64,000 nt of DNA. Source: a bacterium. GTDB taxonomy: Bacteria > Auribacterota > UBA3054. A program made the position numbers and the translations under genes. Shown in pieces: positions 8,684 to 62,361 of the stretch; position 1 is the first letter of the stretch; each line of letters begins with the position of its first letter. Under the pieces are notes generated by a model. The model made no database searches, was not told the origin of the DNA, and worked only from the letters and a program-made list of their open reading frames with translations. Where the stretch lies: positions 122,350-186,349 of the forward strand of contig JAGCTE010000015.1 in the NCBI GenBank assembly GCA_017963805.1, given 5' to 3'.

Positions 8684-8688
8684 CTAAT

Positions 8689-9432: not shown

Positions 9433-9438
9433 AGTTTT

Positions 9439-18475: not shown

Positions 18476-18530
18476 TTTTCTTTTACTTGATTTTTTTGTA
18501 TAATGTTTGCGGATAAAAAACGAGGTATTT

Positions 18531-20354: not shown

Positions 20355-20356
20355 AA

Positions 20357-42704: not shown

Positions 42705-42740
42705 AAAAATAAGGCGGCCGAAAGGCCGCCTTTTTTTATA
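42705..42740. terminator. Bidirectional rho-independent terminator
   Basis: GGCGGCCGAAAGGCCGCC flanked by A and T tracts. Confidence 0.65.
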
Positions 42741-45281: not shown

Positions 45282-45292
45282 AGGGGAATATT

Positions 45293-46960
45293 TTACCAGT
45301 TTTTGTCAACAGGCACGATCGCCCCGGGCATTTTTTTGCGGTTCTTTTCCTTGTCGGAGTTGTCTTCCTCGAAAGCGCGGAGCATCTGCTCGGCCTGTTC
45401 CTTGGTCATTTCCTCGCTTTCAGGTTGATCCTGCTGCTGCTGATCCTGCTGCTGCTGATGCTGGTTTTGATCCTGCTGCTGCTGATCTTGCTGATTCTGG
45501 TCCTGATTCTGATCCTGGTTCTGGTCCTGCTCCTGCTGATCTTTCTGATCCTGCTCTTGCTGATCCTGATCCTGGTTCTGGTTGTCGTTCTGCTGCTGAT
45601 CCTGGTTCTTCTGCTGCTCTTCGTTGTTGTTCTGGTTGTCGTCCTCGAACTCTTTCCTAGCCTTGATGAAATTGTCAAGGGCGACGAACTGGTTCGTGGG
45701 CGCTTCGACAATTAGATTCTTAAGTTTTTCCTCAGCGGCTTTGGAAGCGGCGGAACCGAGCTTCAGGTATTCAATAGCGTTGGTGATGCTCATGGCGAGC
45801 GTCTTTTTGCTGGCGGCGGGGAGGGCTTCCTCTTTCTCTTCGCTTTCGCCTTCCTCTTTCTCCTCGCCTTCCTTTTCGTCCTTCTGCCCGCTGCGGGACT
45901 TCAGTTCCTTGACGATCTCCTGGCCGATGGAGTTGAACTTGTCGGCGCATTCCTTCAGGGCGGGGGCGTCCAAGAGCGAGAGGTCGATGGATAGGTCGTA
46001 GAAATTGTTGAAGACTTCCGCGCAGCGCCCGGCCAGATCGTTGACGTAGGGCGAAACGTTTTCCGAAACAAGGCCGACGGCGGTCGCCCTGGCTTCCTGG
46101 AAACGGTTGGAGAGAGATTGGAAAACGTCCGTCTGGGGAACGCCGCCCTTTATGCACTGGCTGAGGCCTTGGCCGACGTTTCCGAAAGCTTGGTAGAGGT
46201 TGACCAGCGCTTCGTTCTCCGGAGTTTGAGGGAGTCCCTGCTGCATCGGCGCCTCGCCTGTGGACTGCAGCCTTTCCGGCGGCAGGTTGGTGAAGAGCGC
46301 CTGGAAACCGACGATGAGGTAGTCGGCTTTCTCAGAGTGGGCGTACTGGTTCGTCATGATGCCGCTAAAGAAGTCGGGCGGGATGTCCTTGCTCTTTTCG
46401 AGGCTCTTTACGGTCTTTAAGAGCGTCAGGTTCTGCGCTCTTATGAGCGCTTCGAGTTCTCTCAGAAGCTTCTGCAGGGGATCTTTCTCCTGCTCGTCCT
46501 TCTGCTGGCTCGCCAGCTCTTTCATCAGCCTCGTGACGTACTCGATGTTGGCCTTGGTGTCCTCGTCGTCGCGGTCCAGCTCGTTGGCTCTTTTGTAGCT
46601 CTCCAGGGATTCCTTCAGTTTGCCCTGTCGGAAGAGGCAGTTGCCGATGTTGTAATGGCACTTGGCTTCCAGGTCCTGGGAGGCGCCGCTGGCGGCTCTC
46701 TGGAAGGCCGAGATCGCTTCGTCGTATTTTTCAAGGCGGTAGCAGGCGAGACCGGCGTTGTAGTTCGCTTCCGGATTGTCGGGGGAATCGATCTGCGCGT
46801 CGGCGTATTTCTGTTCGGCTTCCTGGAAATTTCCGTCCCGGAAAGCTCTGTTGCCGTCCGCTATCTTGGAGGCGAGCTCTTTGCTGTCGGCGGCGCTGAT
46901 ATCGGCTGCAAAGCTTAAAAGCGAAAGCGCGAAGAGTAGAAGTATGTTTTTCATTTTCAT
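45293..46960 (-). CDS. batC: BatC-like TPR protein with a long Q/D/E/N-rich low-complexity tail
   Basis: 555 aa. Signal peptide, N-terminal TPRs, and a C-terminal QDQDQQEQDQKDQQEQDQNQDQNQDQNQQDQQQQDQ tract. Confidence 0.55.
   Translation of the reverse strand: MKMKNILLLFALSLLSFAADISAADSKELASKIADGNRAFRDGNFQEAEQKYADAQIDSPDNPEANYNAGLACYRLEKYDEAISAFQRAASGASQDLEAKCHYNIGNCLFRQGKLKESLESYKRANELDRDDEDTKANIEYVTRLMKELASQQKDEQEKDPLQKLLRELEALIRAQNLTLLKTVKSLEKSKDIPPDFFSGIMTNQYAHSEKADYLIVGFQALFTNLPPERLQSTGEAPMQQGLPQTPENEALVNLYQAFGNVGQGLSQCIKGGVPQTDVFQSLSNRFQEARATAVGLVSENVSPYVNDLAGRCAEVFNNFYDLSIDLSLLDAPALKECADKFNSIGQEIVKELKSRSGQKDEKEGEEKEEGESEEKEEALPAASKKTLAMSITNAIEYLKLGSAASKAAEEKLKNLIVEAPTNQFVALDNFIKARKEFEDDNQNNNEEQQKNQDQQQNDNQNQDQDQQEQDQKDQQEQDQNQDQNQDQNQQDQQQQDQNQHQQQQDQQQQDQPESEEMTKEQAEQMLRAFEEDNSDKEKNRKKMPGAIVPVDKNW
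45406..45660. repeat. Triplet-type tandem repeat DNA (CTG/ATC/CTG on the + strand) encoding the Q/D-rich tract of the batC-like gene
   Basis: Repeated CTGCTGCTGATCCTG units read directly from the sequence. Confidence 0.6.
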
Positions 46961-46972
46961 GCGGCTTCTCCT

Positions 46973-48031
46973 TTAGCTGATTTTTTTCTGGCCGTCTTTT
47001 ACGACGGACTGCAGAAAGAAGCAGAAAAACGCGGCGCACAAGGGCCACTGGAACCTGTGCTCGTAGTGCTTCTTCTTGGAAGAGTCGAGCTCCTTGGTGT
47101 CCATACCAGCTATTCTTTTCGTATAGATGGCGTCCAGCTCGAGTCCGGAAGCGACGGCCTGGGCGTAGGCGCCGCCGGTTTCCAGCGCGATCTTCTGGAG
47201 CGTCTCTTCGTTGAGCTTACTTAGAACCTGGTTGCCGCTGCGATCGGTGATGTAGGTCTTGCGGCCTTTCTCGTCCGTGATCTGGATGGGGCTTCCGCTG
47301 GGCGTTCCGATGCCGATGCAGAAGATCTTGACGCCTTTTTCCTTGGCCATCTTTATGGCGTTGTCGAGGTCGCCCTGAAGGTTCTCGCCGTCCGTTATGA
47401 GGATGAGCGCCCTGGTGTTGCGTTCGTTGCCCTCGAAGGCGTTGACGGATTTTATGATGGCTTCGCCGATCTGCGTTCCGCCTTTTGGTATGAGCGAGGG
47501 GTCTAATTCGGAGAGGAACATCTTCGCCGCGCCGTAGTCCAGGGTCAGGGGGCACTGGACGAAAGCGCTGCCGGCGAAGGCGACCAAGCCTATGCGGTCG
47601 CCCTGCATGATCTGCATGAGGTCAAGGATGGCGCGCTTGGCGCGCTCAAGCCTATTGGGCGCGATGTCCTGGGCGAGCATGCTTCTCGATACGTCCACGG
47701 CGACTATGATGTCGCGGCCTTCCCTTTTCATCTCCTCCCAAGTGTAGCCCCACTTCGGTTCCATGAGGGCAAGGACCAAAAACGTCAGGCCGAAAAGGAA
47801 GAGGAAGATCTTGAGCACCCGTCCGCCCGCGCTTCTGGTAGTGAGCTTGTCGAGCATTTCCCTGGAGGCGAATTTTTCCAGCATGGCGCTCCTTTTGCGG
47901 TCTCTGTAGAAGAGGAAGACCGCCAGGGCTATAACGATCCAGAGAAGGTGTATGTAATAAAGTTTTTCAAAGTACATTTTTGTCTCCTTAAGGCAGTTTT
48001 TGGAATCTGGTAGCCAAAAGCAGAGTTTCAA
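46973..48031 (-). CDS. batB: BatB-like von Willebrand factor A protein
   Basis: 352 aa. N-terminal TM helices and the MIDAS motif DVSRSM. Confidence 0.7.
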   Translation of the reverse strand: MKLCFWLPDSKNCLKETKMYFEKLYYIHLLWIVIALAVFLFYRDRKRSAMLEKFASREMLDKLTTRSAGGRVLKIFLFLFGLTFLVLALMEPKWGYTWEEMKREGRDIIVAVDVSRSMLAQDIAPNRLERAKRAILDLMQIMQGDRIGLVAFAGSAFVQCPLTLDYGAAKMFLSELDPSLIPKGGTQIGEAIIKSVNAFEGNERNTRALILITDGENLQGDLDNAIKMAKEKGVKIFCIGIGTPSGSPIQITDEKGRKTYITDRSGNQVLSKLNEETLQKIALETGGAYAQAVASGLELDAIYTKRIAGMDTKELDSSKKKHYEHRFQWPLCAAFFCFFLQSVVKDGQKKIS

Positions 48032-48977
48032 TGATAAGAAGCGCGGCGGCCGCGAAGACTAGTCCCGGGAATCTTTCTATCCATTCCATATAGGTCATGG
48101 ATTCCGTCTTGGTCTTCTCAAGTTGGTCGATCTCCTTGTAGATCTTTTCCAGCGAGGCTTTCTCGGTGGCGCGGAAATACTGGCCGCCCGTGGTCTTGGC
48201 GATCTCTTTCAGAAGATCCTCGTCTATTTCGACGGGGACCTGCTGGAGGATCTTGCGGCCGAAGAAGTCGGTGCCCGGGACAGGGGCCATGCCTCTGGTG
48301 CCGGCGCCTATGGTGTAGATCTTTATGCCGAGAGCTTTGGCGCTTTGCGCGACGGCAAGAGGCGCCATCTTGCCGGCGTTGTTCATACCGTCGGTAAGGA
48401 GGACGACCACTCTGCTCGTGACGCTGGAGTCTTTCAGCCTCAAAAGCGCCGTGGCAAGCGCGTCGCCGATGGCGGTCGCGCTCTGGTCGGCCATGCCGAT
48501 CTCGCACTGCTCCAAGAGTTGCAAAAGCGTTCCGTAGTCAAGCGTCAGCGGGCACTGCGTGTAAGCGTCGGCGCCGTAGACCACCAGGCCTATGCGGTCG
48601 CTCGATCTGTGCTTGATGAAGTCGGCGGTCACTTCTTTGACGACGTCGAGCCTGTTGCGGTCCTTGGCAAGGTCTTCCGCGATCATGGAGCCGGACGTGT
48701 CTATGGTCAGCATGATGTCGATGCCTTCCGTAGTCACTTTGGTGTCCTCTTTGCCTTTCTGGGGGCGGGCCAGGGCGATGGCTAAAAGCGCCACGGCGGC
48801 CACTCTCAGAAGGACTATGAAGGGACGGAGCCTGACGGCCAGGGTCGGCTTTATCCTTTTAAGCAGGCTGATGTCGGAGTATCTGACGCCGGCTTTTCCT
48901 TTCTTGCTCAGCGCGTCCCAAAGGATCACGGGGATGAGCAGCAGAAGCAAGAGCCAATATGGGTCGTGAAGGATCAT
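47988..48977 (-). CDS. batA: BatA-like von Willebrand factor A protein
   Basis: 329 aa. TM helices and the MIDAS motif DTSGSM. Confidence 0.7.
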   Translation of the reverse strand: MILHDPYWLLLLLLIPVILWDALSKKGKAGVRYSDISLLKRIKPTLAVRLRPFIVLLRVAAVALLAIALARPQKGKEDTKVTTEGIDIMLTIDTSGSMIAEDLAKDRNRLDVVKEVTADFIKHRSSDRIGLVVYGADAYTQCPLTLDYGTLLQLLEQCEIGMADQSATAIGDALATALLRLKDSSVTSRVVVLLTDGMNNAGKMAPLAVAQSAKALGIKIYTIGAGTRGMAPVPGTDFFGRKILQQVPVEIDEDLLKEIAKTTGGQYFRATEKASLEKIYKEIDQLEKTKTESMTYMEWIERFPGLVFAAAALLIIETLLLATRFQKLP

Positions 48978-49945
48978 TGCTTTCCTCCTTCTTCTTTTTG
49001 TTCAGCGGTCTCCTTGGTCTGCTCGATGAAATTTTTGATGTTGTCAGTGGCTTCCTTCGCCAGTTCCGCGGAAGTCTCGCCCTTGGCGAATTTGATCATG
49101 TCGCATTCGCCCAGGAAGGAGCGGAGCATTTCCCTCTGTTCATAGCTGAACTTGGGGTCCTGCCTTAAGACGGCGAGGAATTCTTCCGTGGTCAGTTCCG
49201 GAGCGCGGATCTCGAATCTGTCTTCAATGTAAGTTCTCAAAACAAGCGAGAGACGGCTGAAATATTCTTTGTAAAGTTCCTTTTCCAATAGCCCCTCGGC
49301 GAGGAGGGCCTCAAGGGCGGCAAAGGCCTTGACGTGCGCGGGCACCGGCGGGGGAGCGGTTTTCTCTTTCTTCCTTCCGAGGCAGAGGAGCAGAACGAGG
49401 GCGACGGCGGCCAGCGAGGCGAGCACGATTATCACTTTCGTTCTGTTCTTTTCCTTCAAGAGAAGCTCGACCACGCCCTTGACGTCCCTGATGTCGTTCA
49501 TCTCTCCTTCCTTCGCGATGGAGACGACCTCCACGCAGAGAGCGGAACTATAGAGCGTGTTGGTGTTGCCGTTTATAACGAAATCGACTTTCGCGGGCGG
49601 GATCTCGTAGACGCCGGTCAGGTAGGTCTCGAGCTCGTAGGTCTGTTTTTTGACGACGCGGCCGCCCGGCAGCGTTTCATCCGGCAGGTTCTCCCAATCG
49701 TGGATCAGAAGGCTTTGAATGGGCGCCAGGTTCTCGGCGAAATCGGGCATCGCGACGTCGATGTTGGTCAGGGCGTTGACGGAGATGGTGTATTTCACAA
49801 GGTCTCCCACCCTGACCTGCGGCCTGTCGACGAAGACGTTCACCGCGACGGGATCGCTGGTCTGGGGAACCGCGAGTTCCGCCTTCTTCTTCTGGCAGCC
49901 GAGCAGCGCCGCGGCGAAAAGTGTTAGCAGAAAAAATTGACGCAT
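48974..49945 (-). CDS. Bat-operon membrane protein (DUF4381-like)
   Basis: 323 aa. Lipoprotein-like signal, a central TM helix, and its position between DUF58 and batA. Confidence 0.4.
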   Translation of the reverse strand: MRQFFLLTLFAAALLGCQKKKAELAVPQTSDPVAVNVFVDRPQVRVGDLVKYTISVNALTNIDVAMPDFAENLAPIQSLLIHDWENLPDETLPGGRVVKKQTYELETYLTGVYEIPPAKVDFVINGNTNTLYSSALCVEVVSIAKEGEMNDIRDVKGVVELLLKEKNRTKVIIVLASLAAVALVLLLCLGRKKEKTAPPPVPAHVKAFAALEALLAEGLLEKELYKEYFSRLSLVLRTYIEDRFEIRAPELTTEEFLAVLRQDPKFSYEQREMLRSFLGECDMIKFAKGETSAELAKEATDNIKNFIEQTKETAEQKEEGGKQ

Positions 49946-49946
49946 G

Positions 49947-50441
49947 TTATTTTTCCTCCTGCTTCTCGACCTTCGCTTCCTCTTTCGCTTCTTTTTTCTC
50001 CGTTTCTTTCTCCGCGAGACTGGGGTCCAAGGCGGTGTATCTCTTCCTGGCCGCGGCCGCCTCTTTCTGGCGTCCGAGCTTCGTTAAGGAATCGACCACT
50101 CTTTTGGGAACGTCCCTGTCGTTCGCGAAGGTGGGGTCAAGGGCTTCGGCGCGGTAGTAGTAGGCGACGGCGTTGGCGAAATCGAGCTTGTCGTAATAGA
50201 TGTTGCCGATCGTAACGCAGATGCCGGGCCTTTCCTTAGCCGGGATCGGGTAATCGCTAAGGTATTTCTGCAGCTCTTTGGCGGCCTGCAGGTCGAGCCC
50301 TTTTGTCCTCAAGTTGACGGCCAGGGCCCTCTGCTGCTCGGCGGTCCAATTTTCCGCCTTGGGAGGGAAGTAGAGCCTGTACGCGATCAGAAGGAGCAGT
50401 ATGAAGCAAAGGATCTGTATGAAGGAAATTGTTTTTGACAT
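49947..50441 (-). CDS. Small TM and TPR protein of the Bat operon
   Basis: TM helix followed by TPR-like repeats. The start is taken at the internal Met to avoid overlap with DUF58. Confidence 0.4.
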   Translation of the reverse strand: MSKTISFIQILCFILLLLIAYRLYFPPKAENWTAEQQRALAVNLRTKGLDLQAAKELQKYLSDYPIPAKERPGICVTIGNIYYDKLDFANAVAYYYRAEALDPTFANDRDVPKRVVDSLTKLGRQKEAAAARKRYTALDPSLAEKETEKKEAKEEAKVEKQEEK

Positions 50442-50445
50442 AAGT

Positions 50446-51327
50446 TTAGAAAATGTTTTTTTCCCGGCGCTTGAAGAAGCGGACGATCTCGTCGCCATAG
50501 TTGGCGCCGGTCGAGACGCGCATGGAGTCGACGCCCGAGGAGGTGAAGTTTTTGTCGCGATCCTCGCTCCTCATAAGGGAAAGCTTTTCCAGAGTCCGGC
50601 GGACTTTGCCGTCAAAGGTGTCGACCGTTATGGCTTCGCCGGTCTCGGCGTCCTCCAAGGTGATGAGGCCTATAGGCGGGAGAGAGCTTTCCCTCGGGTC
50701 GGAAACGCAGACCGGGATGAGGTCGTGGCGTTTGCTGGCGAGATTGATCGGCTTTTCATAGCCTTCGCACAGAAAGTCCGAGATAAGGAAGACCACGGCT
50801 TTCCTGCGGCAGACTTTGTTGAGGAAGTCGAGCGCGTTTCCGACGTCCGTTTTGGAACGCTCGCTCTTCTTGAAGCCCAAGACTTCCCTTATCACTCTCA
50901 GAACGTGGGAGTGGCCTTTCTTCGGCGGGATGTAGAGCTCGATCTGATCCGTGAAGATGATGAGCCCTACCCTGTCGTTGCTTCTTATCGCGGTGTAGGC
51001 CAGAAGGCCCGCGATCTCCGCGGCGATCTCGTTCTTGCTCTTATCAAGGGATCCGAAGGCGCCGGAAGAGCTCGCGTCCACCATAAGCATGACGGTCAGC
51101 TCGCGCTCCTCGACGAAGCGCTTCACATACGGCACGCCGGTCCTGGCCGTGACGTTCCAGTCGATGGTCCTGATGTCGTCGCCGGGCTGGTAGAGCCTGA
51201 CTTCGTCAAACTCCATGCCGCGCCCTTTGAAGGCGCTCTTGTATTCGCCGGCCATGACTTCGGTCACCTGATGGCTGGTCCTGATCTGGATCTGGCGGAC
51301 TTTCTGGAGCAGTTCTTTGGATAACAT
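50446..51327 (-). CDS. DUF58 protein (MoxR-associated VWA-like)
   Basis: 293 aa. Has DDIRTIDWNVTAR and a degenerate MIDAS MVDASSS. Confidence 0.75.
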   Translation of the reverse strand: MLSKELLQKVRQIQIRTSHQVTEVMAGEYKSAFKGRGMEFDEVRLYQPGDDIRTIDWNVTARTGVPYVKRFVEERELTVMLMVDASSSGAFGSLDKSKNEIAAEIAGLLAYTAIRSNDRVGLIIFTDQIELYIPPKKGHSHVLRVIREVLGFKKSERSKTDVGNALDFLNKVCRRKAVVFLISDFLCEGYEKPINLASKRHDLIPVCVSDPRESSLPPIGLITLEDAETGEAITVDTFDGKVRRTLEKLSLMRSEDRDKNFTSSGVDSMRVSTGANYGDEIVRFFKRREKNIF

Positions 51328-51359
51328 CTTAATTTCTCCTTAACCTAAGGGAAAAACTA

Positions 51360-52349
<990 letters not shown>

Positions 52350-52360
52350 GTTTTCTCCTT

Positions 52361-53230
52361 TTAGATGTAAAGCTCATCCGTTTCCTTTTGACGGTTGGGC
52401 TTGTTACGGATTAATAATTCTTTCAAAAAATCATAGGCGCGCTTTTCCTCCATGGCGGAGGGCTCGTAGCCGGCGTAGCGCACGTTGAAGCAGAGGGCGC
52501 AGACATCTTTGGCGGTCCTCAGCATCCTCTGGTCAACGCTCATTTCCTTCGCTTCCTTTTCGCCGAAGGAATCGAGGTCGGCTATGGAATATTTGGCGCG
52601 CAGGTAGTTTCTCAGCAGCCCTTCGCATTTGCCGAAGTAGGCGGCGGTCTCGCCCTTCAACCTCAGCTCCTTGCTTTCCTCAAGCTTCGATAAGTATTCT
52701 TCCTCGAGGTTCTGTTCCGGGCGCGCATCCGCCTTCTTCGCGTTTTTCTTTTTGACCGCGAAAAAGATCAGAAGAGCGGCAAAAATGACGGCGGCGGCTG
52801 ATCCTATCAGAAGCCAGGGGAGGGCGGAGCCCCTTACGTTAAGAGTCACGCCGGACAGATCCGAGCTTTTGAATTCGCTGTCCTCCAACCCCCTCGACAT
52901 TACTTCGATGAAGCCTGTCTCGACGGACGTGCCCGGAGCGTTCGTGACCAGAAGCTCTATCACGTAGGTTGCGGTGTGCTGCGTTCCGCCCGCTCCCGGC
53001 TTCGACTCGTTGTAGCTGACGATGTCTTTTACAAGCGCGCCTTTAAGTTCCTTGAAGCGGGGAGTGCGCACCGAGATCGTCTCAAAGCCGGTCCAAGTGG
53101 CCGTCATCTTAAGCTGCGTGCTCTTCTGCGAGACGACGTTCGTGCTCTCCGGCATGATCTCCCACTTCACTTCCGGATAGACGCTCAGCGCCGCGAGAAA
53201 AATTGCCAATATGTAAGAAATGTTACGCAT
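52361..53230 (-). CDS. Hypothetical secreted or membrane protein, upstream of moxR
   Basis: Signal peptide followed later by a TM helix. No recognisable motif. Confidence 0.35.
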   Translation of the reverse strand: MRNISYILAIFLAALSVYPEVKWEIMPESTNVVSQKSTQLKMTATWTGFETISVRTPRFKELKGALVKDIVSYNESKPGAGGTQHTATYVIELLVTNAPGTSVETGFIEVMSRGLEDSEFKSSDLSGVTLNVRGSALPWLLIGSAAAVIFAALLIFFAVKKKNAKKADARPEQNLEEEYLSKLEESKELRLKGETAAYFGKCEGLLRNYLRAKYSIADLDSFGEKEAKEMSVDQRMLRTAKDVCALCFNVRYAGYEPSAMEEKRAYDFLKELLIRNKPNRQKETDELYI

Positions 53231-53459
53231 GCCGGATATATTGCAAAAATCGTGCCAAAAATTAACCAACTATGTTTGAGCAATTTAATAAATTGGCCTC
53301 GCTGGATTTTGTCAAAATGACAAAGCGAAGTGAATGTTTTTAATCTATAAAAAAGGCTGTTTTTTAAGGATATTTATATATAGTTTGCTTTTGCGTATCA
53401 TTGTTATCGATTGAGATAATCCTTATAAACATCCGTTAACCAAAACCAACGAGGTTATT

Positions 53460-55982
53460 ATGAAACGAGTTCTTATAGCTTTGCTGCTCCTGGTCTGCGT
53501 TCCGGTCTTCGCCGGCGTCGTCTATCAGGAAGATTTTGAAAGCTACGAAGTGGGCACCCAGATGGCCGAACAGGAAGGCTGGGAATTCTACAACAATTAC
53601 AGCGGCAACACCACGGTCGTTGACAACGCTCCCAATATCGATTCCAAGGCCATGGAACTGAGTCAGTCCATGAGCGGCTCCACCGAGTACGTCATGGTCC
53701 TGACTCCAACCTTCGATGCCAAGCCTGAAAGTATCTTCAAAGAGGTCACCAAGGTCTCCACGAAAGTTGTCTCCAGTTCCAGCACCGATCTTTTCGCGCT
53801 CTATGACAAGAACATGAACCGCTTCTTCTATCTGCATCTGAACGCGGTGGACGGCTTGATGGCTTCGAACCCGGGCGGCGTTTCCTTTGATAATTTCAAC
53901 TCTGACGGTCTGACCCCCAACGAGATCTCTTTCGTTTTCGACCATCTCAACAATCAGATCACGTCTGTGACCTGCAACGGCGAGACTCAGGAATGCGCCA
54001 TTATGCTGGAAACCACCTGCGAACAGCCGTGGAGACTGCGTCTTTCCACGTATCTTGGCAGTTTGGTCGAAGGCGCCGCCGGCACCTACTATGACTACGT
54101 TACGGTCGAGAATGTGAACCGCGCCGAAGAGCCCACCATCTTCTGCGACAGCGACGCGGTCATTCCTCTTGATTCCACCAGCGCGGAGTTCACGCTCTTC
54201 AACGGCGGCCCCGAAGGCGAGATCAACTTCAGCGTCACGACCGACGCCGCTTGGCTGGAAGTCACTCCCGACAGCGGCACCTTCACCGACTCCACCGCCC
54301 TTACCCTGAAGGCCAAGGAAGACATGCCCGACGGCTTCTACCGCGGCAGCATGACCGTCTCCGGCGGCGCCGGCGAACCGAAAGTGGTTTCCGTCATGTG
54401 CTCGAAAGGCAACGTTATCTTCGAAGAAAAATTCGACGATATGGAAGACGGCTCAATCGTCGGCCAGCGCGGCTGGACGCTTGACATGGGCGATGTCATC
54501 GTCACCAACGCCTACGATTGCAGCGGCAAATGCATGTTCATTTTGGGCGCGGGCGGCAACAACGCCTGCAGCATGTACCTGCCGGAAGCTTGTTGGTATG
54601 AAAACCTTGTGGTGAAGGTCTCCTACGACGTGTATTGGCCTGTCGACGGCACGGCCACAGACGTCTGCATGCTGCAGAAAAACAGCCACGAAAAGTTTGA
54701 AAACTACGTTTCGAGAGACGACAGCGGCGAAGGTTTCAAACTGGTGAACATCCAGAAGCAGAGCGGCGCCAAGAGCATCAAGAATTTCCCCCTCGCCTCC
54801 TATGACAAGTGGGTCACGGTCGAATACACGATCGACCTCCAGGCCAACATGCTTCTCAGTTTCGGCTGGGACGGCGCCATCACCAACTTCAACAACTTCC
54901 AGCTGAAGAAACCCGAAGTGAATTTCTACAATTCCTGGGGATATGCCGTTTGGGATAACGCCAACGGTGTTCTTGAATGCAATCACGGCATCGACAACTT
55001 GAAGGTCGAAAGAGTCGAAAGGGAAGCGGATCCTACTTTGATCGTTCCCATGTCCGCCTCTGTCGGCGTTAACGAAAGCGCCGCAATCACCGTCTTGAAC
55101 GGCGGCAAAGGCACCTTCGACTATACGGCTGAAGTTCTCGATCTTCCCGAGAACGTCACCCTTGATCCAAGCAGCGGAACCGTTGAGGAAACTCAGGAAG
55201 TGACGCTCACCGTTGACAGGGAAGGCTTAGAGGACAACTACTATCGCACCAGAGTGGTGTTCAACGCCGGCGAAGCCGGATGCGCCACCACCATCGTTTC
55301 CTTTGTGGTAGGCGGCGTTTATTACTCCGCCGACTTTGAAGAACCGTTCTTCACGCTTGGTGACTTTGCCGGCCAGGACGACTGGGGCGACAACAACCCC
55401 GGAGCCAACGTTGCCTACATTCTCAGCACCAACGACAACCAGACCGTGATGATTGAGATCGGCGGCGGTTACGGCGGCTACTACCACTCCTTGGCAGTTC
55501 CCGAGAACAACATCGTCAGGTTCGACTGCGATGTCTTCCTCCCGCCCGCCATCTTTGAAAGGGAAGATCTGATCGGCAGGGAAGTAATTTACTTCAAGCA
55601 GAACAGCATGGGGTCTTCCGCCGCTGACATAACTTTGGACATCGACTTCATGGACGGCGTTCCCATTGTTTACGGTCTCGACCACGCCAACGATTACATG
55701 TTCTCGACGACCGAGTACGCTGAGGATTGGATGCACGTTTCCTACGTCATCGACTACAAGGAAGGCAAACTTGTGGAATTCACGATCGATGACAATTCGG
55801 AATATCCCGTGGACGCCTACATCAATGACTCGTACAAAGGCGCCGGCTGCAACCTCTTCTGCCTGTGCGTCACCTATCAAGGCAACATCCAGTTCGACAA
55901 CGTCAAAGTCAGCGTTGTTCCTGAACCGGCTGTCTTAGGCTTCCTCGCTCTCCTTGCTCTGGCTCTCATCAGACGCAAATAA
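53460..55982 (+). CDS. PEP-CTERM surface protein (paralog 2 of 4)
   Basis: 840 aa. Signal peptide. Module starts YQEDFESYEVGTQMAEQEGW, FEEKFDDMEDGSIVGQRGW and YYSADFEEPFFTLGDFAGQDDW. C-terminus VPEPAVLGFLALLALALIRRK. Confidence 0.8.
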   Translation: MKRVLIALLLLVCVPVFAGVVYQEDFESYEVGTQMAEQEGWEFYNNYSGNTTVVDNAPNIDSKAMELSQSMSGSTEYVMVLTPTFDAKPESIFKEVTKVSTKVVSSSSTDLFALYDKNMNRFFYLHLNAVDGLMASNPGGVSFDNFNSDGLTPNEISFVFDHLNNQITSVTCNGETQECAIMLETTCEQPWRLRLSTYLGSLVEGAAGTYYDYVTVENVNRAEEPTIFCDSDAVIPLDSTSAEFTLFNGGPEGEINFSVTTDAAWLEVTPDSGTFTDSTALTLKAKEDMPDGFYRGSMTVSGGAGEPKVVSVMCSKGNVIFEEKFDDMEDGSIVGQRGWTLDMGDVIVTNAYDCSGKCMFILGAGGNNACSMYLPEACWYENLVVKVSYDVYWPVDGTATDVCMLQKNSHEKFENYVSRDDSGEGFKLVNIQKQSGAKSIKNFPLASYDKWVTVEYTIDLQANMLLSFGWDGAITNFNNFQLKKPEVNFYNSWGYAVWDNANGVLECNHGIDNLKVERVEREADPTLIVPMSASVGVNESAAITVLNGGKGTFDYTAEVLDLPENVTLDPSSGTVEETQEVTLTVDREGLEDNYYRTRVVFNAGEAGCATTIVSFVVGGVYYSADFEEPFFTLGDFAGQDDWGDNNPGANVAYILSTNDNQTVMIEIGGGYGGYYHSLAVPENNIVRFDCDVFLPPAIFEREDLIGREVIYFKQNSMGSSAADITLDIDFMDGVPIVYGLDHANDYMFSTTEYAEDWMHVSYVIDYKEGKLVEFTIDDNSEYPVDAYINDSYKGAGCNLFCLCVTYQGNIQFDNVKVSVVPEPAVLGFLALLALALIRRK

Positions 55983-55999
55983 AAGAGCGCTTCTCTAAC

Positions 56000-56035
56000 A
56001 AAAAAAGGCCCGGCCCATGCCGGGCCTTTTTTTGT
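56000..56035 (+). terminator. Rho-independent terminator
   Basis: GGCCCGGCCCATGCCGGGCC stem followed by TTTTTTT. Confidence 0.65.
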
Positions 56036-56150
56036 TATTAATGTATAATTATCTTGGTTTTTTTAAGGTATTAATTTTCAAGGTCTTGTTTTGTATAATC
56101 TTAGGTACAAATCTGTGGAAATTTTTAATCAACGAACAAAAGGCGTTTTT

Positions 56151-58676
56151 ATGAAACAGCTTCTTATCCTTTTTCTCTTCGGTGCGCTTTCCCTCGCCGC
56201 TGAAACGGTGATCTTTGAGGAGAACTTCGAAAGTTACGAAGTCGGAACTCAGATGTCCGAACAGGAAGGCTGGGGAATACTTGGCAACTTCGACGGCAAC
56301 ACCACGGTCGTTTCCGGCATTTCCGGATTCAGCGGCAAATGCATGGAAATGAGCCGGTCCGAGAGCGGCAACCCCAACGATGTGGTGGTGATGCTTCCGG
56401 GCGCGGATCTTGTTCCGGCGGATCCTTTGAAAGAGCTCACGAAAGTCTCGCTTTCCTTCGTCTGCTCCACCGAAAACGATATGATAGCGCTGCACGACGC
56501 CAACGGCAACCCCTTCTTCTATCTCCGCTGCAACTCAGTGAACGGCGCGTTGGTCAGCGTGCCTGGCGGCGTTTCTTTCAGCAATCTCTACAAGGACGGC
56601 CATACTCCCAACACCTTCTCAGTGATCTTGGACTTCAACGATAAAAAGGCCGTTGAAGCAACTTTGAACGGCGTTACGCAGGAATGCGCCGTCGAGTTCT
56701 CCGGCAGCTGCGTGATGCCTACCAGGCTGTACTTTTACGTGCAGCTCTCCACCATGCAGGAAGGCTGCACCGCCTCCTATTTCGACGACATCCTGATTCA
56801 AACCATTCCCCGTCCCGCCGGCCAGGCCATCATCTGCGACGACAGCGCGCTTATTCCACTCGACAAGACCGAGGCGCAGTTCACCGTAAAGAACGGCGGC
56901 GAATCCGACATCACCTTCACGGTGACATCCGACGACGAGTGGCTGGCAGTTACGCCTGACAGTGGCACCTTCAGCGACAGCCAGACGCTTACGCTCTCCG
57001 CCAAGGAAGGCTATCAGGACACTTTCCGCCGCTGCAACATGACAATTGACGGCGGCTTGGCCGGAACGAAAGTCGTTTCCGTCATGTACCAGGGCGGCAA
57101 CATCATTTTCAAGGAAGACTTCGATTCCATGACGGACGGCACCATAGTAGGGCAGCGCGGCTGGACGCTTGACGTCGGCGACGTGGTCATCACCAACGCC
57201 TACGAATGCGAAGGTAAGTGTATGTTCCATTATCTCTCCGGCGGCAACAACGGCTGCAGCATGTATCTGCCGCAGCCCTGGTATGAGAACATGATCGTAA
57301 AGGTCAGCTACAAGCTCTATTGGCCCAGCACCAGCGGCGCCACCGGCGTCTGCCCGCTGCAGAAAGATTCCGGCACCACGGAAAAATTTGAGGCCGGCTA
57401 CGTGCCCGACAACAGCGGCGAAGGCTTCACGCTTTCCTACATCAACAAGCTGAGCGGCGGCAGCACGGTCGCCAAATCCATCCGCGATTTCCCGATCGCT
57501 CCCTACGACCAGTGGGTGCCCATCGAATACACCTTAGACCTGCAGACGCAGAAACTTCTCTCTTTCGGCTGGGACGGCACAATTACGAACTTCGTGAACT
57601 GGTCTCTGCCCAACCCCTCCTGCAATTACTTCTGCTCCTGGGGACACGCCGACTGGGATCCCACGGGCCCCACCTCGCTCCACGCCGTCGACGACCTCAC
57701 CATAGAGAGAGTGCCCAGGTCCCAGGAAGCCACCCTCATCGCCCCCTCCTATGTCAACGGCGGCGTTGAACCCTTCTTCACCATCGAAATGCGCAACGGC
57801 GGATCCGGCAGTTTCGATTATACCGCGGAGATCTTAGACATTGACGACGCTTTGAAGATCAACAGGCCGACTGGCACCATTAGTGACGTGGGCACTATCA
57901 CCGTGACCCCCGACAGGAGCCAGCTTGACGAAAATTATTATCACGCAAGGGTAAGGATCGACGCCGGGGAAGCCGGCTGCGTGACTTCCATCGTCTCCTT
58001 CGTGGTCGGCAACGTCTATTACTTCGCCGATTTCGAGGAACCCTTCTTCCATTCCGGCGACATCACCGGACAGGACGATTGGATGAACGACAATCCGGAC
58101 TGGAACCTTGCCTACGTTCTGACCACCAACGACCAGCAAACTCTCTGCGTCGAGACCGGCGGCGGTTACGGCGGCTACTATCACACCCTCGACGTCCCCA
58201 AGAACAACTTCGTAAGGTTCGAGATGGATATTTTCGTCCCGCAGGCGATCTTTGAAGATCCGGACAGGCTCACCAACCCCATCCTGCACTTGAAGCAGAA
58301 TGACAAATACAACCCCTCCATAGAGCTGAGGATCGCTCCCGACCTGATGGACGGAGTGCCTATTCTAGTCGGCGACGCCGTGGGCTACGAAGACTATCCT
58401 TTGGCCATCGCTGATTATCCTGATGATTGGACGCACCTGAGCTACACCATAGACTACCTTGAAGGCAGGCTGGTGGAATTCAGCATCGGCGACGTCACCG
58501 AGTTCCCGGAGTATGTTTACACCAGGGACTCCGACGTGCCTTGCACGCTGTTCTGCGTTTGCGTTGGCAGCGAGGTGGATCTCCAGGTCGACAACGTGAA
58601 AATCAGCGTCGTTCCCGAGCCTTGCGCGCTATTGCTCCTCGCGTTCGCGGCCGCGCTCGCGTTGAGGCGCAGGTGA
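56151..58676 (+). CDS. PEP-CTERM surface protein (paralog 3 of 4)
   Basis: Starts at MKQLLILFLF. Has the same module starts (FEENFESYEVGTQMSEQEGW, FKEDFDSMTDGTIVGQRGW, YYFADFEEPFF). C-terminus VPEPCALLLLAFAAALALRRR. Confidence 0.8.
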   Translation: MKQLLILFLFGALSLAAETVIFEENFESYEVGTQMSEQEGWGILGNFDGNTTVVSGISGFSGKCMEMSRSESGNPNDVVVMLPGADLVPADPLKELTKVSLSFVCSTENDMIALHDANGNPFFYLRCNSVNGALVSVPGGVSFSNLYKDGHTPNTFSVILDFNDKKAVEATLNGVTQECAVEFSGSCVMPTRLYFYVQLSTMQEGCTASYFDDILIQTIPRPAGQAIICDDSALIPLDKTEAQFTVKNGGESDITFTVTSDDEWLAVTPDSGTFSDSQTLTLSAKEGYQDTFRRCNMTIDGGLAGTKVVSVMYQGGNIIFKEDFDSMTDGTIVGQRGWTLDVGDVVITNAYECEGKCMFHYLSGGNNGCSMYLPQPWYENMIVKVSYKLYWPSTSGATGVCPLQKDSGTTEKFEAGYVPDNSGEGFTLSYINKLSGGSTVAKSIRDFPIAPYDQWVPIEYTLDLQTQKLLSFGWDGTITNFVNWSLPNPSCNYFCSWGHADWDPTGPTSLHAVDDLTIERVPRSQEATLIAPSYVNGGVEPFFTIEMRNGGSGSFDYTAEILDIDDALKINRPTGTISDVGTITVTPDRSQLDENYYHARVRIDAGEAGCVTSIVSFVVGNVYYFADFEEPFFHSGDITGQDDWMNDNPDWNLAYVLTTNDQQTLCVETGGGYGGYYHTLDVPKNNFVRFEMDIFVPQAIFEDPDRLTNPILHLKQNDKYNPSIELRIAPDLMDGVPILVGDAVGYEDYPLAIADYPDDWTHLSYTIDYLEGRLVEFSIGDVTEFPEYVYTRDSDVPCTLFCVCVGSEVDLQVDNVKISVVPEPCALLLLAFAAALALRRR

Positions 58677-58742
58677 AATTTCATAACGGGTGGTTTTTTG
58701 TTAAAATAGAGTAAACAAATTAACCGATCACGAGAACGAGTT

Positions 58743-59660
58743 ATGAAACGATTTCTCCTCCTCATCCTTGTGGCGCTGGCCCTCTGCCCGTCCTGTACCG
58801 ATAAGGAGCAGCCGAAGGCCGGACACGTCATTTTCATCGGCGTGGACGGCGTGTCTACGCCCGCCTTTAAGGATCCCAAGCTTCTGGATGGTCTGCCCAA
58901 CCTCAAGATGATGATGAACGAGGGAAGTTACACCCTGGAAAAACGCTCCGTGATGCCGTCGGCTTCGGCCATCAACTGGGCCTCCATTTTCAACGGGCTT
59001 CCCACTGAGCAGCACGGGTTTGGGCATTGGAACACCGTAAAGCCAGAGGTCCCGCCCGTTTTGGACAACGGCAGGGGAATGCCGCCGACCATCTATACGC
59101 TGCTCAGGGAACAGCGCCCGGACGCTGAGACCGGCTGCGTATACGACTGGGACGGCATCGGCCCGCTCATCGACGAGGAGGTCATCAACTATCACCTGTA
59201 CCGCAAGCCGGACAGCAGCGCGCTTGAAAAGTATGTCAGGGAAGACGCCGTCAGGTATATCCTGGAGAAGAAGCCGACGTTCTTCACAGTTTACATCGGC
59301 GAACCGGACGAAGTGGGTCATAATGAAGGCTGGGACACCCCCAGTTATTACGAAAGTCTTGAAAGAGTTGACAAGATGGTAGGCATCATTATTCAGGCGT
59401 ACAAGGACGCCGGCATCATGGACGATACGATCTTCGCCTTCTCGTCCGACCACGGAGGTTCGGAAAAAGGGCACGGAGAACTTAAGATGCTGCATCTTGA
59501 GACGCCCTTCATCCTCTACGGAAAAAATATCCGCAAAGGTTATGTCCTGGACGAGCCAACGATGCAGTACGACCTAAGTGCCACGCTCGCCTACGCTCTT
59601 GGTCTCAAGATCCCCAAGGCCTGGCGCGGACGGGCGCTGACATCCATGTTCAACGAATAG
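58743..59660 (+). CDS. Alkaline-phosphatase-superfamily enzyme (type I phosphodiesterase/nucleotide pyrophosphatase-like), secreted
   Basis: 305 aa. Lipoprotein-like signal, metal-ligand regions VIFIGVDGVS and FSSDHGG, and GEPDEVGHNEGW. Confidence 0.7.
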   Translation: MKRFLLLILVALALCPSCTDKEQPKAGHVIFIGVDGVSTPAFKDPKLLDGLPNLKMMMNEGSYTLEKRSVMPSASAINWASIFNGLPTEQHGFGHWNTVKPEVPPVLDNGRGMPPTIYTLLREQRPDAETGCVYDWDGIGPLIDEEVINYHLYRKPDSSALEKYVREDAVRYILEKKPTFFTVYIGEPDEVGHNEGWDTPSYYESLERVDKMVGIIIQAYKDAGIMDDTIFAFSSDHGGSEKGHGELKMLHLETPFILYGKNIRKGYVLDEPTMQYDLSATLAYALGLKIPKAWRGRALTSMFNE

Positions 59661-59712
59661 ATTTTTTGTTAAAGCATAGCAAACCAACTAACAACTAACA
59701 CAGGAACGAGTT

Positions 59713-62247
59713 ATGAAACGAATCCTTATTCTTTTAGCGCTCCTTTCCTTCGCCGCCTCCAATCTGGCCTTTTCCGATACCCTCTATCGGGAAGATTTCG
59801 AAGCGTATGAAGTGGGAACGCAGATGACAGATCAGGAAGGCTGGGACTTCTACAGCACCTACACCGGCAACAGCACGGTTGTGACCAACGCTCCCAATAT
59901 CGAGGGCAAAGCCATGATCCTTTCTCCCTCCGCGACCGGTCACGACGAATACGTCATGGTATTGACGCCGAGCGTTGATCTTACGACGCCCAATGCGGCG
60001 GCCAATCTGGTCACCGTCAGCGCCAAAGTCATAATGGCCAGCAGCATCGATCTTTTCGCCATCTATGACAAGGACATGAACCGCTACTTCTATCTGAAGG
60101 GCGACCGCAGCAACGGTACGCTGGAAAGCTACCCCTCCGGCGTCGTTTTCAGCAACCTCTACACCGACGCGACGACCCCCGACGAGATCGCTTTCGTTTG
60201 GGATCCCTTCGAACAGAAGGTCGTAAAGGTCTCCTGCAACGGCGAGGAAAAGGAATGCAGCATTCTGCCCAGCGGCACTTGCGCTCAGCCTTCCAGGCTG
60301 CGCCTTTCCCTGCAGCACACTTCCTTGGACGGCGCCGAGGGCACTTACTACGATTATGTGGACGTTTCCTATTCGCCCCGTTCCGCCGATCCTATGCTTT
60401 ACTGCCCTGAAGACGCGCTCATCCCGCTGGATGCCGAAAGCGTTGAATTCGAGATCTACAACGCCGGGCCGGACACCACCACCATCAACTACTCCATCAC
60501 CACGTCCAGCGATTGGCTGAGCGTCACTCCGACTAGCGGCTCATTCAACGAATCCGCAGTCCTGACTCTCAAAGCCGCGGAAGGTTTGGAAGAAGGCTTT
60601 TACCGCGGCACCATGACCGTTGACGGCGGCGAGGCCGGAACGAAAGTTGTTTCCGTCATGTGCTCCAACGGCAACGTTATTTTCGAGGAGAATTTCGACG
60701 ACATGACGCCCGGCAACATCGTCGGCCAGCGCGGCTGGACGGTGGACGTCGGCAACGTCAGCGTCACCAACGCCTACGACTGCTCCGGCAACTGCATGTT
60801 CATGCACCGCTGCGGCGGCAGCTACGCCTGCAGCATGTACCTGCCGAAACCCTGGTATGAAAACATCATCGTCAAGGTCAGCTACGACCTCTACTGGCCC
60901 AGCGACAGCAACTGCGACGACTCCTACGTTCTCATGAAGGACAACGGCCAGAACGAAAAGTTCGAAGGCCAGTTCATGCCCACCTATCCCGACGGCCTCG
61001 GCATCAAGATGATCAAGAGAAGCAACAAGGACGGCAGCGAGCAGGAAAAACGCGTCAAAGATTTCCCGCTCTCTCCTTTTGACACCTGGAACAGGGTGGA
61101 ATACTGCCTTGACCTGCAGAGCCAGAAGCTTCTCTATTTCTCAATGGGCGAGAACGTCACAAACTTCGTCGACTGGCCCTTGATGAACCAGGGCTGTAAC
61201 TTCTTCAACTCCTGGGGCCACTCCGCCTGGAACGGCGTAGACAACGGCAGCCGCGTGGCGGTCGACAACCTTAGGATCGAAAGAGTGCCCAGGGAAGCCG
61301 ATCCCGAGCTGGTGGTTGACAAATTTGTTTCCATCGGAGTCGACGACGGCATAGTTTACAGCGTCCGCAACGGCGGCGCCGGCAGCTTCGACTTCACGGC
61401 GGAAGTCCTCGACCTCGACGACGCCGTCACCTTAAGCCAGACCAGCGGCACGGTGGAAAGCTCCGTCGACATCGACGTCTCGGTCAACAGGGAAGTTTTG
61501 GAAGACAACTACTACAGGTTCAGAGTCAGAGTGGACGCCGGGGAAGCCGGCTGCTCCACCACCATCTTCGCCTTCGTCAGTGGCACCGTCTATTACTTCG
61601 CCGACTTTGAGGAGCCGTTCTTCACGCTGGGCGACTTTGCCGGCCAGGATGAATGGGTGGACGACAACGGCGGCGAAAACATTGCCTACATCTGCTCCAC
61701 CAACGACCAGCAGTCCCTTTATATGGAACACGGCGGCAACTGGGGCGGCTTTATGCACTCCCTCGAAGTGCCGGCCAACAGCATGGTGAGATTCGACATG
61801 GATCTGTTCATTCCGCCCGCTCTCTTCGACGATCCCGAGTGGATGGACCAGACCGTACTCTATCTCAAGCAGAACAGCAAAAGAACGCCTTCGAAGGAAC
61901 TGATGCTTAACATCACTTCCGTGGACGGCGTCCCGTATGTCTACGCTACCGCCAAAGACTACGACATGACGTTCTGCGAAACGGAATACGCTTACGAATG
62001 GATGCACGTCTCGTATGTCATCGACTACCTCCAGGGCCTGGTGACCGAAGTCACGATCGACGACAACACCTTCGTTACCGATGAACTGGTCACCGAAGAC
62101 GCCGGCGTGCCCTGCACCCTGTTCTGCCTGTGCGGCTCTTACGGCGCCAATCTGACCTTCGACAACGTCAAGGTCTCGGTCGTTCCCGAACCGGCCGCGC
62201 TCGTCGCGCTCATCGCGCTTCTGGCCCTCGGCATTCGCCGCAGATAA
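59713..62247 (+). CDS. PEP-CTERM surface protein (paralog 4 of 4)
   Basis: 844 aa. Module starts YREDFEAYEVGTQMTDQEGW, FEENFDDMTPGNIVGQRGW and YYFADFEEPFFTLGDFAGQDEW. C-terminus VPEPAALVALIALLALGIRRR. Confidence 0.8.
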   Translation: MKRILILLALLSFAASNLAFSDTLYREDFEAYEVGTQMTDQEGWDFYSTYTGNSTVVTNAPNIEGKAMILSPSATGHDEYVMVLTPSVDLTTPNAAANLVTVSAKVIMASSIDLFAIYDKDMNRYFYLKGDRSNGTLESYPSGVVFSNLYTDATTPDEIAFVWDPFEQKVVKVSCNGEEKECSILPSGTCAQPSRLRLSLQHTSLDGAEGTYYDYVDVSYSPRSADPMLYCPEDALIPLDAESVEFEIYNAGPDTTTINYSITTSSDWLSVTPTSGSFNESAVLTLKAAEGLEEGFYRGTMTVDGGEAGTKVVSVMCSNGNVIFEENFDDMTPGNIVGQRGWTVDVGNVSVTNAYDCSGNCMFMHRCGGSYACSMYLPKPWYENIIVKVSYDLYWPSDSNCDDSYVLMKDNGQNEKFEGQFMPTYPDGLGIKMIKRSNKDGSEQEKRVKDFPLSPFDTWNRVEYCLDLQSQKLLYFSMGENVTNFVDWPLMNQGCNFFNSWGHSAWNGVDNGSRVAVDNLRIERVPREADPELVVDKFVSIGVDDGIVYSVRNGGAGSFDFTAEVLDLDDAVTLSQTSGTVESSVDIDVSVNREVLEDNYYRFRVRVDAGEAGCSTTIFAFVSGTVYYFADFEEPFFTLGDFAGQDEWVDDNGGENIAYICSTNDQQSLYMEHGGNWGGFMHSLEVPANSMVRFDMDLFIPPALFDDPEWMDQTVLYLKQNSKRTPSKELMLNITSVDGVPYVYATAKDYDMTFCETEYAYEWMHVSYVIDYLQGLVTEVTIDDNTFVTDELVTEDAGVPCTLFCLCGSYGANLTFDNVKVSVVPEPAALVALIALLALGIRRR

Positions 62248-62271
62248 ACCGGCATAATCAAAAACCGAAAC

Positions 62272-62309
62272 AAAAAAAGGCGGAGGAATTTTTCCTCCGC
62301 CTTTTTTTG
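62272..62309 (+). terminator. Rho-independent terminator
   Basis: GGCGGAGGAATTTTTCCTCCGCC followed by TTTTTTT. Confidence 0.65.
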
Positions 62310-62310
62310 T

Positions 62311-62339
62311 TTGACATTTTTGGAGAAACATTATACAAT
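62311..62339 (+). promoter_or_regulatory. Near-consensus sigma70 promoter (TTGACA, 17-nt spacer, TACAAT) driving the second copy of island gene 1
   Basis: Hexamers and spacer read directly. AAAGGAG sits 8 nt before the ATG at 62362. Confidence 0.55.
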
Positions 62340-62361
62340 AATAGAGAAAGGAGTGGCTATT

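Follow-up and report, generated by a model that had tools for sequence, protein, structure and literature searches.

Tandem genes for predicted PEP-CTERM proteins with three lectin-like jelly-roll modules and two BACON domains in a ruminant-gut bacterial lineage

The DNA analyzed here, referred to as the window, is a stretch of 64,000 nt from a bacterium of the lineage UBA3054 (contig JAGCTE010000015.1, positions 122,350 to 186,349, of assembly GCA_017963805.1). An earlier note on this stretch had proposed four paralogous genes starting at 11594, 53460, 56151, and 59713. Open reading frames (ORFs) related to one another by BLAST were found at all four positions, all on the + strand. We labeled them A, B, C, and D; A–C are clustered and D lies apart. 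The encoded proteins share one domain order, namely a signal peptide, module 1, a BACON domain, module 2, another BACON domain, module 3, and a PEP-CTERM tail. The parts of A were delimited with the family alignment and hidden Markov models (HMMs). The genes and their parts are as follows.

53460-55982, + strand: paralog A, ORF of 840 aa
53460-53513, + strand: signal peptide of A
53514-54134, + strand: module 1 of A
54135-54413, + strand: BACON domain 1 of A
54414-55049, + strand: module 2 of A, the copy that was modeled, predicted as a concanavalin-A-like / LamG-like jelly roll
55050-55325, + strand: BACON domain 2 of A
55326-55910, + strand: module 3 of A
55911-55979, + strand: PEP-CTERM tail of A
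56151-58676, + strand: paralog B, ORF of 841 aa from ATG
56205-56825, + strand: module 1 of B
56826-57101, + strand: first BACON domain of B
57102-57746, + strand: module 2 of B
57747-58022, + strand: second BACON domain of B
58023-58604, + strand: module 3 of B
58605-58673, + strand: tail of B
59713-62247, + strand: paralog C, ORF of 844 aa
59776-60393, + strand: module 1 of C
60394-60675, + strand: first BACON domain of C
60676-61320, + strand: module 2 of C
61321-61596, + strand: second BACON domain of C
61597-62175, + strand: module 3 of C
62176-62244, + strand: tail of C
11594-14206, + strand: paralog D, ORF of 870 aa with the same five-domain plan as A–C
11663-12298, + strand: module 1 of D
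12299-12580, + strand: first BACON domain of D
12581-13252, + strand: module 2 of D
13253-13543, + strand: second BACON domain of D
13544-14131, + strand: module 3 of D
14138-14203, + strand: LPEP tail of D

Pairwise identity among A, B, and C was 47-53 %. D was ~25 % identical to A–C over its full length, and pairwise BLAST of D against A, B, and C gave E-values of about 1e-37 to 1e-38, a support that is independent of the family HMMs. All four proteins carry signal-peptide-like N-termini. They are acidic and of ~88 kDa, with a mature isoelectric point (pI) of about 4.1. For B, the ATG at 56151 gives a normal signal peptide and agrees with the public gene call of 841 aa. A is the public protein P0001, annotated as 'hypothetical protein J6X96_01695 [bacterium]'. 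The upstream regions of the paralogs could be aligned around the start codon only, and a shared regulatory leader was rejected on this ground.

The earlier note described each protein as three copies of one ~300-aa module. A 29-sequence family alignment was cut at the Pfam BACON borders, and the pieces were compared by hhalign. Module 1 matched module 2 (97.0 %, E 8.4e-11, 183 columns), and module 2 matched module 3 (97.3 %, E 2.3e-11, 173 columns). The match of module 1 to module 3 was weaker (31 %, E 5e-4, 165 columns). Spacer 1 matched spacer 2 (97.6 %, E 3.3e-12, 70 columns), and module-versus-spacer comparisons gave noise-level scores. Modules 1 and 2, and modules 2 and 3, are therefore homologous over their whole length, indicating a threefold repeat of one module in every protein. 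Whether the modules would align beyond a short motif at their starts had been set beforehand as the refuting check; they align end to end. Self-comparison of each protein as a single sequence gave no off-diagonal match. Between paralogs, an off-register match joined residues 458-781 of B with residues 165-490 of D (E 1e-20).

The size of the repeat unit had to be revised. The ~300 aa do not form one module; they correspond to a domain of ~200 aa followed by a BACON_2 domain of ~92 aa. Module 3 is without a BACON domain and continues directly into the sorting tail. By sequence, module 2 of D is nearer to the module-3 type of A–C. The family HMMs cover all five domains of D, which was itself part of their source alignment. 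The same plan extends to relatives with four modules, of about 1040 aa, and with five, of 1469 aa.

The immunoglobulin (Ig)-like segments that the earlier note had placed between the modules proved to be BACON_2 domains (PF19190). They scored 45.1 bits in A, 48.5 bits in B, and 41.7 bits in C, all above the Pfam gathering threshold of 25; D alone scored 12.1 bits, under this threshold. The string W-x-x-V-T/S-P-x-SG, offered as the mark of these separators, was present in the first BACON domain only. Both BACON regions of A were predicted as 7-8-strand β domains, with a predicted local distance difference test score (pLDDT) of about 85-94. BACON and BACON_2 are Ig-like domains with a proposed spacer role (PMC11216935). 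BT3986, in which an Ig spacer is joined to a LamG3 domain, is a surface glycan-binding protein, and LamG3 was seldom combined with BACON or BACON_2 in the same survey (PMC11216935).

Module 2 of A was modeled with AlphaFold, using a 21-sequence module alignment as input. The model was confident (pLDDT 89.0, predicted TM score 0.87) and all-β, and it showed the two-sheet jelly roll of the concanavalin-A-like (ConA-like) superfamily. Its best structural matches were lectin or carbohydrate-binding module (CBM) domains of sialidases and related enzymes (5mqs, 15.4; 8hls, 14.6; 6yp6, 13.6; 2w68, 13.3). They were followed by calnexin/calreticulin, polysaccharide lyases (PL), glycoside hydrolase (GH) families GH131 and GH16, legume lectins, galectins, and DUF1080. 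Sequence identity between the module and the matched solved structures was 6-16 %. When the module model was compared with viral models by Foldseek, generic LamG/ConA-like jelly rolls were found (TM score 0.5-0.67). A special phage link, suggested by the name 'viral BACON', was rejected because the viral fold matches are generic LamG proteins.

The full-length model of A (pLDDT 84.8) contained three jelly-roll domains, two small β domains, and a terminal helix at residues 824-839. Foldseek of this model against the PDB returned only generic strings of β domains with TM scores of about 0.1, such as ciliary Ig chains, cadherins, titin, and complement C3. The same search also gave GH115 (4zmh) and tandem CBM22 (4xup), which were uninformative on function; 4zmh is among the structures with BACON or BACON_2 domains (PMC11216935).

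We found no sequence model for the module in Pfam, NCBIfam, or the PDB; the whole proteins were searched, together with 21 isolated modules for Pfam and a profile search of the PDB sequences. Laminin_G_3 (PF13385) did not match the whole proteins at E <= 1, and its best hit was 0.044, in two of the 21 isolated modules. Names such as DUF3304 and Cu_bind_CorA were discarded as sub-threshold Pfam noise. We searched 1.84 billion representative proteins exhaustively with the module profile. There were 227 matches at E <= 1e-3, including 47 at <= 1e-10 and 23 at <= 1e-30. The strongest were the multi-module family, and many weaker ones were single-module proteins of ~250 aa ending in a PEP-CTERM signal. 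Such a tail was recognized by pattern in 60 of the 145 matches listed, and by Pfam in 22 of 47 short matches, with E-values down to 1.6e-8. The short relatives have the consensus FE.P....G.L.GQDGW ... W....D ... DN.....VPEP and matched the window module profile by hhalign (99.7 %, E 7.7e-27, 190 columns), a comparison that is partly circular as they were picked by the same profile. All remote relatives are named 'hypothetical' in the databases, and in some the module occurs beside GDSL lipase, Kelch, or Ig repeats.

Sequence evidence from these relatives likewise linked the module with the ConA-like clan. Laminin_G_3 was detected in five of the 47 short remote relatives (best 5e-7), and Sialidase-like_CBM and CBM_4_9 in one each. 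In P0090, the module profile matches residues 420-622 and Laminin_G_3 matches residues 494-613 of the same protein. Catalytic domains were found in none of the annotated family proteins of 40 clusters, which contain BACON_2 only, plus Flg_new_2 in one protein. For the four window paralogs, no Pfam family beyond BACON_2 reached significance and none was catalytic. The GH16 catalytic motif E-[ILV]-D-x-(x)-E (ExDxxE) was absent from all four, and no GH16 family matched. The module is probably a lectin-type, ConA-like and LamG-like jelly roll, and its fold and domain context suggest that it binds carbohydrate.

Of the 12 module starts, 11 carry the motif F[EDN]..G..Q..W, the exception being module 1 of D, which is without the Q..W part. 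A six-frame search of the rest of the window gave two loose matches, and each of 20 shuffled windows gave 0-3, so the motif at the module starts is not due to chance. The block is kept in all three module types and in the remote single-module relatives (FE.P....G.L.GQDGW). Positions common to module types 2 and 3, D, and the remote relatives are F7, G13, Q18, W21, W133, Y138, D141, and D194. In the module model, the block forms the first strand and the loop into strand 2, and D194-N lies in the last strand. In jelly rolls and LamG-type domains, the first and last strands pair, and the LamG core is marked by a W...Y..D strand with a "DG" turn after it. DUF1080 domains typically have an N-terminal hairpin of similar form, "F.G..L.GW". 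In several jelly-roll CBMs and GH16 enzymes, a structural Ca2+ sits between an Asp of the last strand and residues of the N-terminal region. We take the eight common positions to belong to the fold core of a LamG-type domain.

The earlier note had read this acidic-aromatic block as a ligand- or metal-binding site. Its presence in all module types and remote relatives and its first-strand location did not support that claim as worded. A specificity site would be expected to vary between modules, so the block is more likely a structural clasp in the first jelly-roll strand than a site that determines specificity. It may possibly include a structural Ca2+ site. Each module type has motifs of its own that are kept across orthologues, namely EKFE, YWP, and TNF in module 2 and GGGYGGY and KQN in module 3. 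Ligand contacts are more plausibly sought in these motifs. Neither D nor the five-module relatives retain the polar strings of module 2.

The C termini of A, B, and C contain VVPEP and that of D contains TLPEP, followed by a hydrophobic stretch and then RRK or RRR. The descriptive features of PEP-CTERM proteins (PEP, a hydrophobic helix of about 15-20 residues, a basic cluster, and an N-terminal signal peptide) are present in all four. The isolated tails of A, B, and C scored 17.6, 18.2, and 20.2 bits against TIGR02595, all above its cut-off of 16 bits. The proposed sorting signal of VPEP, hydrophobic helix, and RR(K/R) is recognized by TIGR02595 in the isolated tails of A–C and by pattern in all four, with LPEP in D. 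The PEP motif, helix length, and terminal RR(K/R) are kept in every complete family member. No such tails were found on other ORFs of the window.

In the GTDB species set, relatives occur only among ruminant gastrointestinal metagenome-assembled genomes (sheep, buffalo, yak, goat) and UBA3054, titled 'bacterium UBP3'; the multi-module family is confined to such ruminant-gut genomes of one lineage. LigA of the window is at least 80 % identical within its own clade, then ~53 % identical to proteins of Chlamydiae, Omnitrophica, Planctomycetes, WOR-3, or unclassified bacteria (where the source is named). Because of this fall, LigA suggests that the host belongs to a deep, possibly PVC-like (Planctomycetes–Verrucomicrobia–Chlamydiae) lineage. 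In the related loci L001-L004, the gene order is a Bat/MoxR operon (- strand), A, B, a phosphodiesterase gene, and C, and it is syntenic in at least four other species. A fourth tandem paralog, ~60 % identical to B, lies between A and B in L002 (13275-15752) and L004 (13278-15755), so the tandem copy number varies between species (3-4). The local expansion described for the family is therefore real, with A, B, and C in tandem and another tandem copy in two related species.

The ratio of nonsynonymous to synonymous substitution rates (dN/dS) was 0.12-0.27 for A, B, and C versus 0.04-0.08 for the neighboring MoxR gene. Hence the genes look functional and under purifying selection. By domain, dN/dS was 0.06-0.55, below 1 in every domain, and domain-wide positive selection was rejected. 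The A orthologue is down to 61 % identity where MoxR remains at 95 %. Variability among A orthologues is usually greatest in module 1, the domain most distant from the anchor, and lowest in module 3. Synonymous divergence was uneven along the genes (for C versus L003, from 0.04 in module 1 to 0.40 in module 3), which hints at recombination. DNA-level repeats between the paralogs were all in register and only 63-76 % identical, indicating that the duplications are old. Recent gene conversion among the paralogs was rejected on the same evidence.

Three further features belong to the cluster.

58743-59660, + strand: 305-aa gene of the alkaline-phosphatase superfamily (type I phosphodiesterase / nucleotide pyrophosphatase family; PF01663, 1.8e-27)
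56012-56026, + strand: terminator-like GC hairpin and T-run downstream of A (pattern match)
62268-62312, no strand assigned: strong bidirectional terminator-like hairpin of 20 pairs downstream of C, marking where the cluster ends and a low-GC island starts

The phosphodiesterase-family gene was absent from the description in the earlier note. It always sits between B and C and is syntenic in L001-L004 and L014-L017. Its product has a lipoprotein-like N-terminus (LALCPSC) and only generic matches in NCBIfam. The leaders upstream of this gene (58694-58756) and of C (59662-59726) have a common stretch, 81-86 % identical, that reads TTTTTTGTTAAA...AAAC..A.TAAC ... GAACGAGTTATGAAACGA. It could mean that the intergenic region was duplicated or that both genes use the same translation-initiation context. 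In this region, promoter and terminator patterns were no more frequent than in shuffles. On the other side of the cluster, divergent from A, a Bat/MoxR-type operon occupies 42736-53269 on the - strand. It encodes a TPR/SH3 protein, BatD, a TPR protein, two VWA/BatA-B-like proteins, a DUF58 protein, a MoxR ATPase, and two proteins without a family match. It is syntenic with the paralogs in every related locus; there is no evidence of a functional link to them.

We consider it reasonably probable (about 0.6) that the paralogs are exosortase-sorted, multivalent glycan-binding surface proteins composed of three lectin-type modules and two BACON spacers. This reading is based on the domain architecture, fold, tail features, repeat homology, synteny, and purifying selection. 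The acidic protein of five β-sandwiches would be exported by Sec, and its PEP-CTERM tail would first retain it in the cytoplasmic membrane. An exosortase would then cut the tail and hand the protein to the cell exterior or the exopolysaccharide layer. In Nostoc, exosortase loss reduces cell-associated polysaccharide (PMC12188702). At the surface, the three modules would form a multivalent glycan-binding stalk, with the BACON domains holding them apart. The ligands could be plant, microbial, or host polysaccharides, or the exopolysaccharide of the cell itself. The modules within one protein differ and each module type is conserved among orthologues; tandem paralogs may supply differing specificities.

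Several results weigh against this assignment. No glycan-utilization genes adjoin the cluster, whose neighbors are the Bat/MoxR operon and the phosphodiesterase-family gene. No exosortase gene was found, either by a hydrophobicity scan of the window or among the Pfam families of the 10 kb flanking it on each side (~84 kb examined). The only three polytopic membrane proteins of the window are presumably Rnf subunits. The D tail matched no PEP-CTERM model. PF07589 gave 12.9 bits on full-length A, under its threshold of 20.7 bits, and no listed match for B–D. The results on the exosortase and the tails, together with weak scores of the tails against the MYXO-CTERM and PGAP-CTERM models, would agree with a plain C-terminal membrane anchor or a non-exosortase signal. 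The protein would then stay on the inner membrane facing the periplasm, perhaps with the lipoprotein phosphodiesterase. We regard this as very unlikely. An ordinary anchor does not account well for a PEP motif, helix length, and RR(K/R) retained throughout the family, for the TIGR02595 scores of A–C, or for the canonical PEP-CTERM signals of the remote module homologues. Moreover, the ~84 kb is part of a genome of which this contig alone has at least 240 kb.

The paralogs might instead build a structural coat or matrix, that is, an S-layer-like or exopolysaccharide-embedded scaffold held by protein-protein or Ca2+ contacts, with no specific external ligand and with the paralogs as antigenic or phage-evasion variants. 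The very acidic mature pI, the strings of β-sandwiches with their generic resemblance to cadherin-, titin-, and complement-like chains, evolution faster than that of the neighbors, and the mosaic synonymous divergence all agree with a coat, as do the 3-4 tandem copies between species and the three, four, or five modules per protein across the family. We still judge it unlikely, since dN/dS well below 1 in every domain gives no sign of diversifying selection, and the surface motifs conserved in each module type across orthologues suggest specific binding. The coat overlaps with glycan binding if the ligand is the cell's own exopolysaccharide. Catalytic modules seem less likely still. As ConA-like jelly-roll lyases or glycoside hydrolases (as in PL7/PL14/PL20, GH16, or GH131), they would make the protein a surface-anchored three-headed glycanase. 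The fold admits such enzymes; however, the best structural matches are non-catalytic lectin/CBM domains, no enzyme family of Pfam or NCBIfam matches the modules even at E 10, and the ExDxxE motif is missing. The positions common to all modules read as fold core from general knowledge of LamG-type domains, the loss of the module 2 polar strings in D and the five-module relatives does not suit an active site, and the module beside GDSL lipase, Kelch, or Ig repeats reads as an accessory binding module. It is also conceivable, as a long shot, that the ~200-aa module is a generic exosortase cargo domain. It would recur in diverse bacteria, joined straight to the PEP-CTERM signal. Its invariant FE...G.L.GQ(D)GW / D-N clasp would bind the cell's own exopolysaccharide or the exosortase attachment moiety, and the module would here be triplicated and genetically coupled to the surface phosphodiesterase as a capture-and-cleave unit for phosphodiester polymers. 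If so, it would explain how cleaved PEP-CTERM proteins remain on the cell, and the targets could be extracellular DNA, teichoic-acid-like glycans, or phosphoglycans.

Returning to multivalent glycan binding, we compared the paralogs with known systems. Like exosortase substrates (TIGR02595, PF07589), they have a tail of PEP, helix, and basic cluster. The nearest examples are the ~250-aa 'hypothetical' proteins composed of a signal peptide, one module of the same ~200-aa kind, and the tail; in them, as here, the last strand of the module (x-D-N-x-x-V) continues directly into the PEP motif. Unlike them, the window proteins have the module three times (four to five times in relatives), alternating with BACON domains, and the exosortase partner is a presumed one. 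The nearest named NCBIfam PEP-CTERM families, NF038120 and NF038129, matched the tail region only, far under their cut-offs. Within the ConA-like superfamily, the nearest relatives are LamG-like jelly rolls (Laminin_G_3) and sialidase lectin/CBM40-type domains (5mqs, 8hls, 2w68, 1w0o), from which the module differs by its low identity and by having no significant direct Pfam match and no PDB sequence match.

The surface glycan-binding proteins of Bacteroidota (BT3986, BoGH5A; PMC11216935) are similar in combining Ig-like BACON-type and jelly-roll domains in a secreted envelope protein of a gut bacterium, with the same proposed spacer logic. They join an Ig-like spacer (BACON, DUF1735, or the SusE/F N-domains) to LamG3, a CBM, or a catalytic domain. 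They have an N-terminal lipid anchor and a spacer beside the membrane and are encoded in polysaccharide utilization loci, whereas the window proteins have a C-terminal PEP-CTERM tail, spacers between lectin modules, no SusC/D context, and a possibly PVC-like host. The tandem CBMs of glycanases, such as CBM22-1-CBM22-2 of Xyn10C (4xup), also place jelly-roll binding modules in series, which suggests avidity; unlike the window family, in which no catalytic domain was detected, they are joined to one.

Two other features of the window were recorded. Two paralogous low-GC islands (31-42 % GC versus ~55 % background) lie at 18507-25323 and at 62361-64000, the latter continuing in L014 12650-19377. 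In each, 3-4 large proteins are encoded that start with a hydrophobic, signal-peptide-like segment and match no family significantly. The proteins are of 615/857/798 aa in one island and 599/468+373/793 aa in the other, with identities of 57 %, 35 %, and 26 %; the middle gene is split in island 2. They follow the PEP-CTERM paralogs D and C, respectively, lying a few kb downstream of each. Island 2 begins just past the terminator of C and is followed by an AddAB-like helicase. Their composition suggests a foreign origin. A Wadjet-like gene set was found at 4931-10980 on the - strand, consisting of JetA2 (DUF2397, 9439-10980, PADLOC E-value 4e-15), JetB2 (DUF2398, 8689-9432, 1.7e-10), and JetC (4931-8683, 3.7e-70). 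JetD was not found next to them, and the gene that follows on the same strand encodes a small cytidine/dCMP deaminase.

Every part of the paralogs is of a known kind, namely the PEP-CTERM tail, the BACON_2 domain, and the ConA-like jelly roll, and the findings do not overturn current understanding. In the databases searched, the module has no entry as a sequence family. Also absent from them were the plan of alternating lectin and BACON domains that ends in a C-terminal anchor, the confinement of this plan to a single rumen lineage, and the fixed pairing with a phosphodiesterase gene. The jelly-roll module, which typically occurs fused to a PEP-CTERM signal, is a candidate for a new domain family, and it could shed light on the way in which exosortase substrates become associated with the cell envelope. 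Genes annotated as 'hypothetical proteins' can thereby be read as likely encoding multivalent, lectin-like proteins of the cell surface in a deep-branching, uncultured lineage of the ruminant gut. The binding specificities of the paralogs, if determined, could reveal the attachment targets of this lineage in the rumen.

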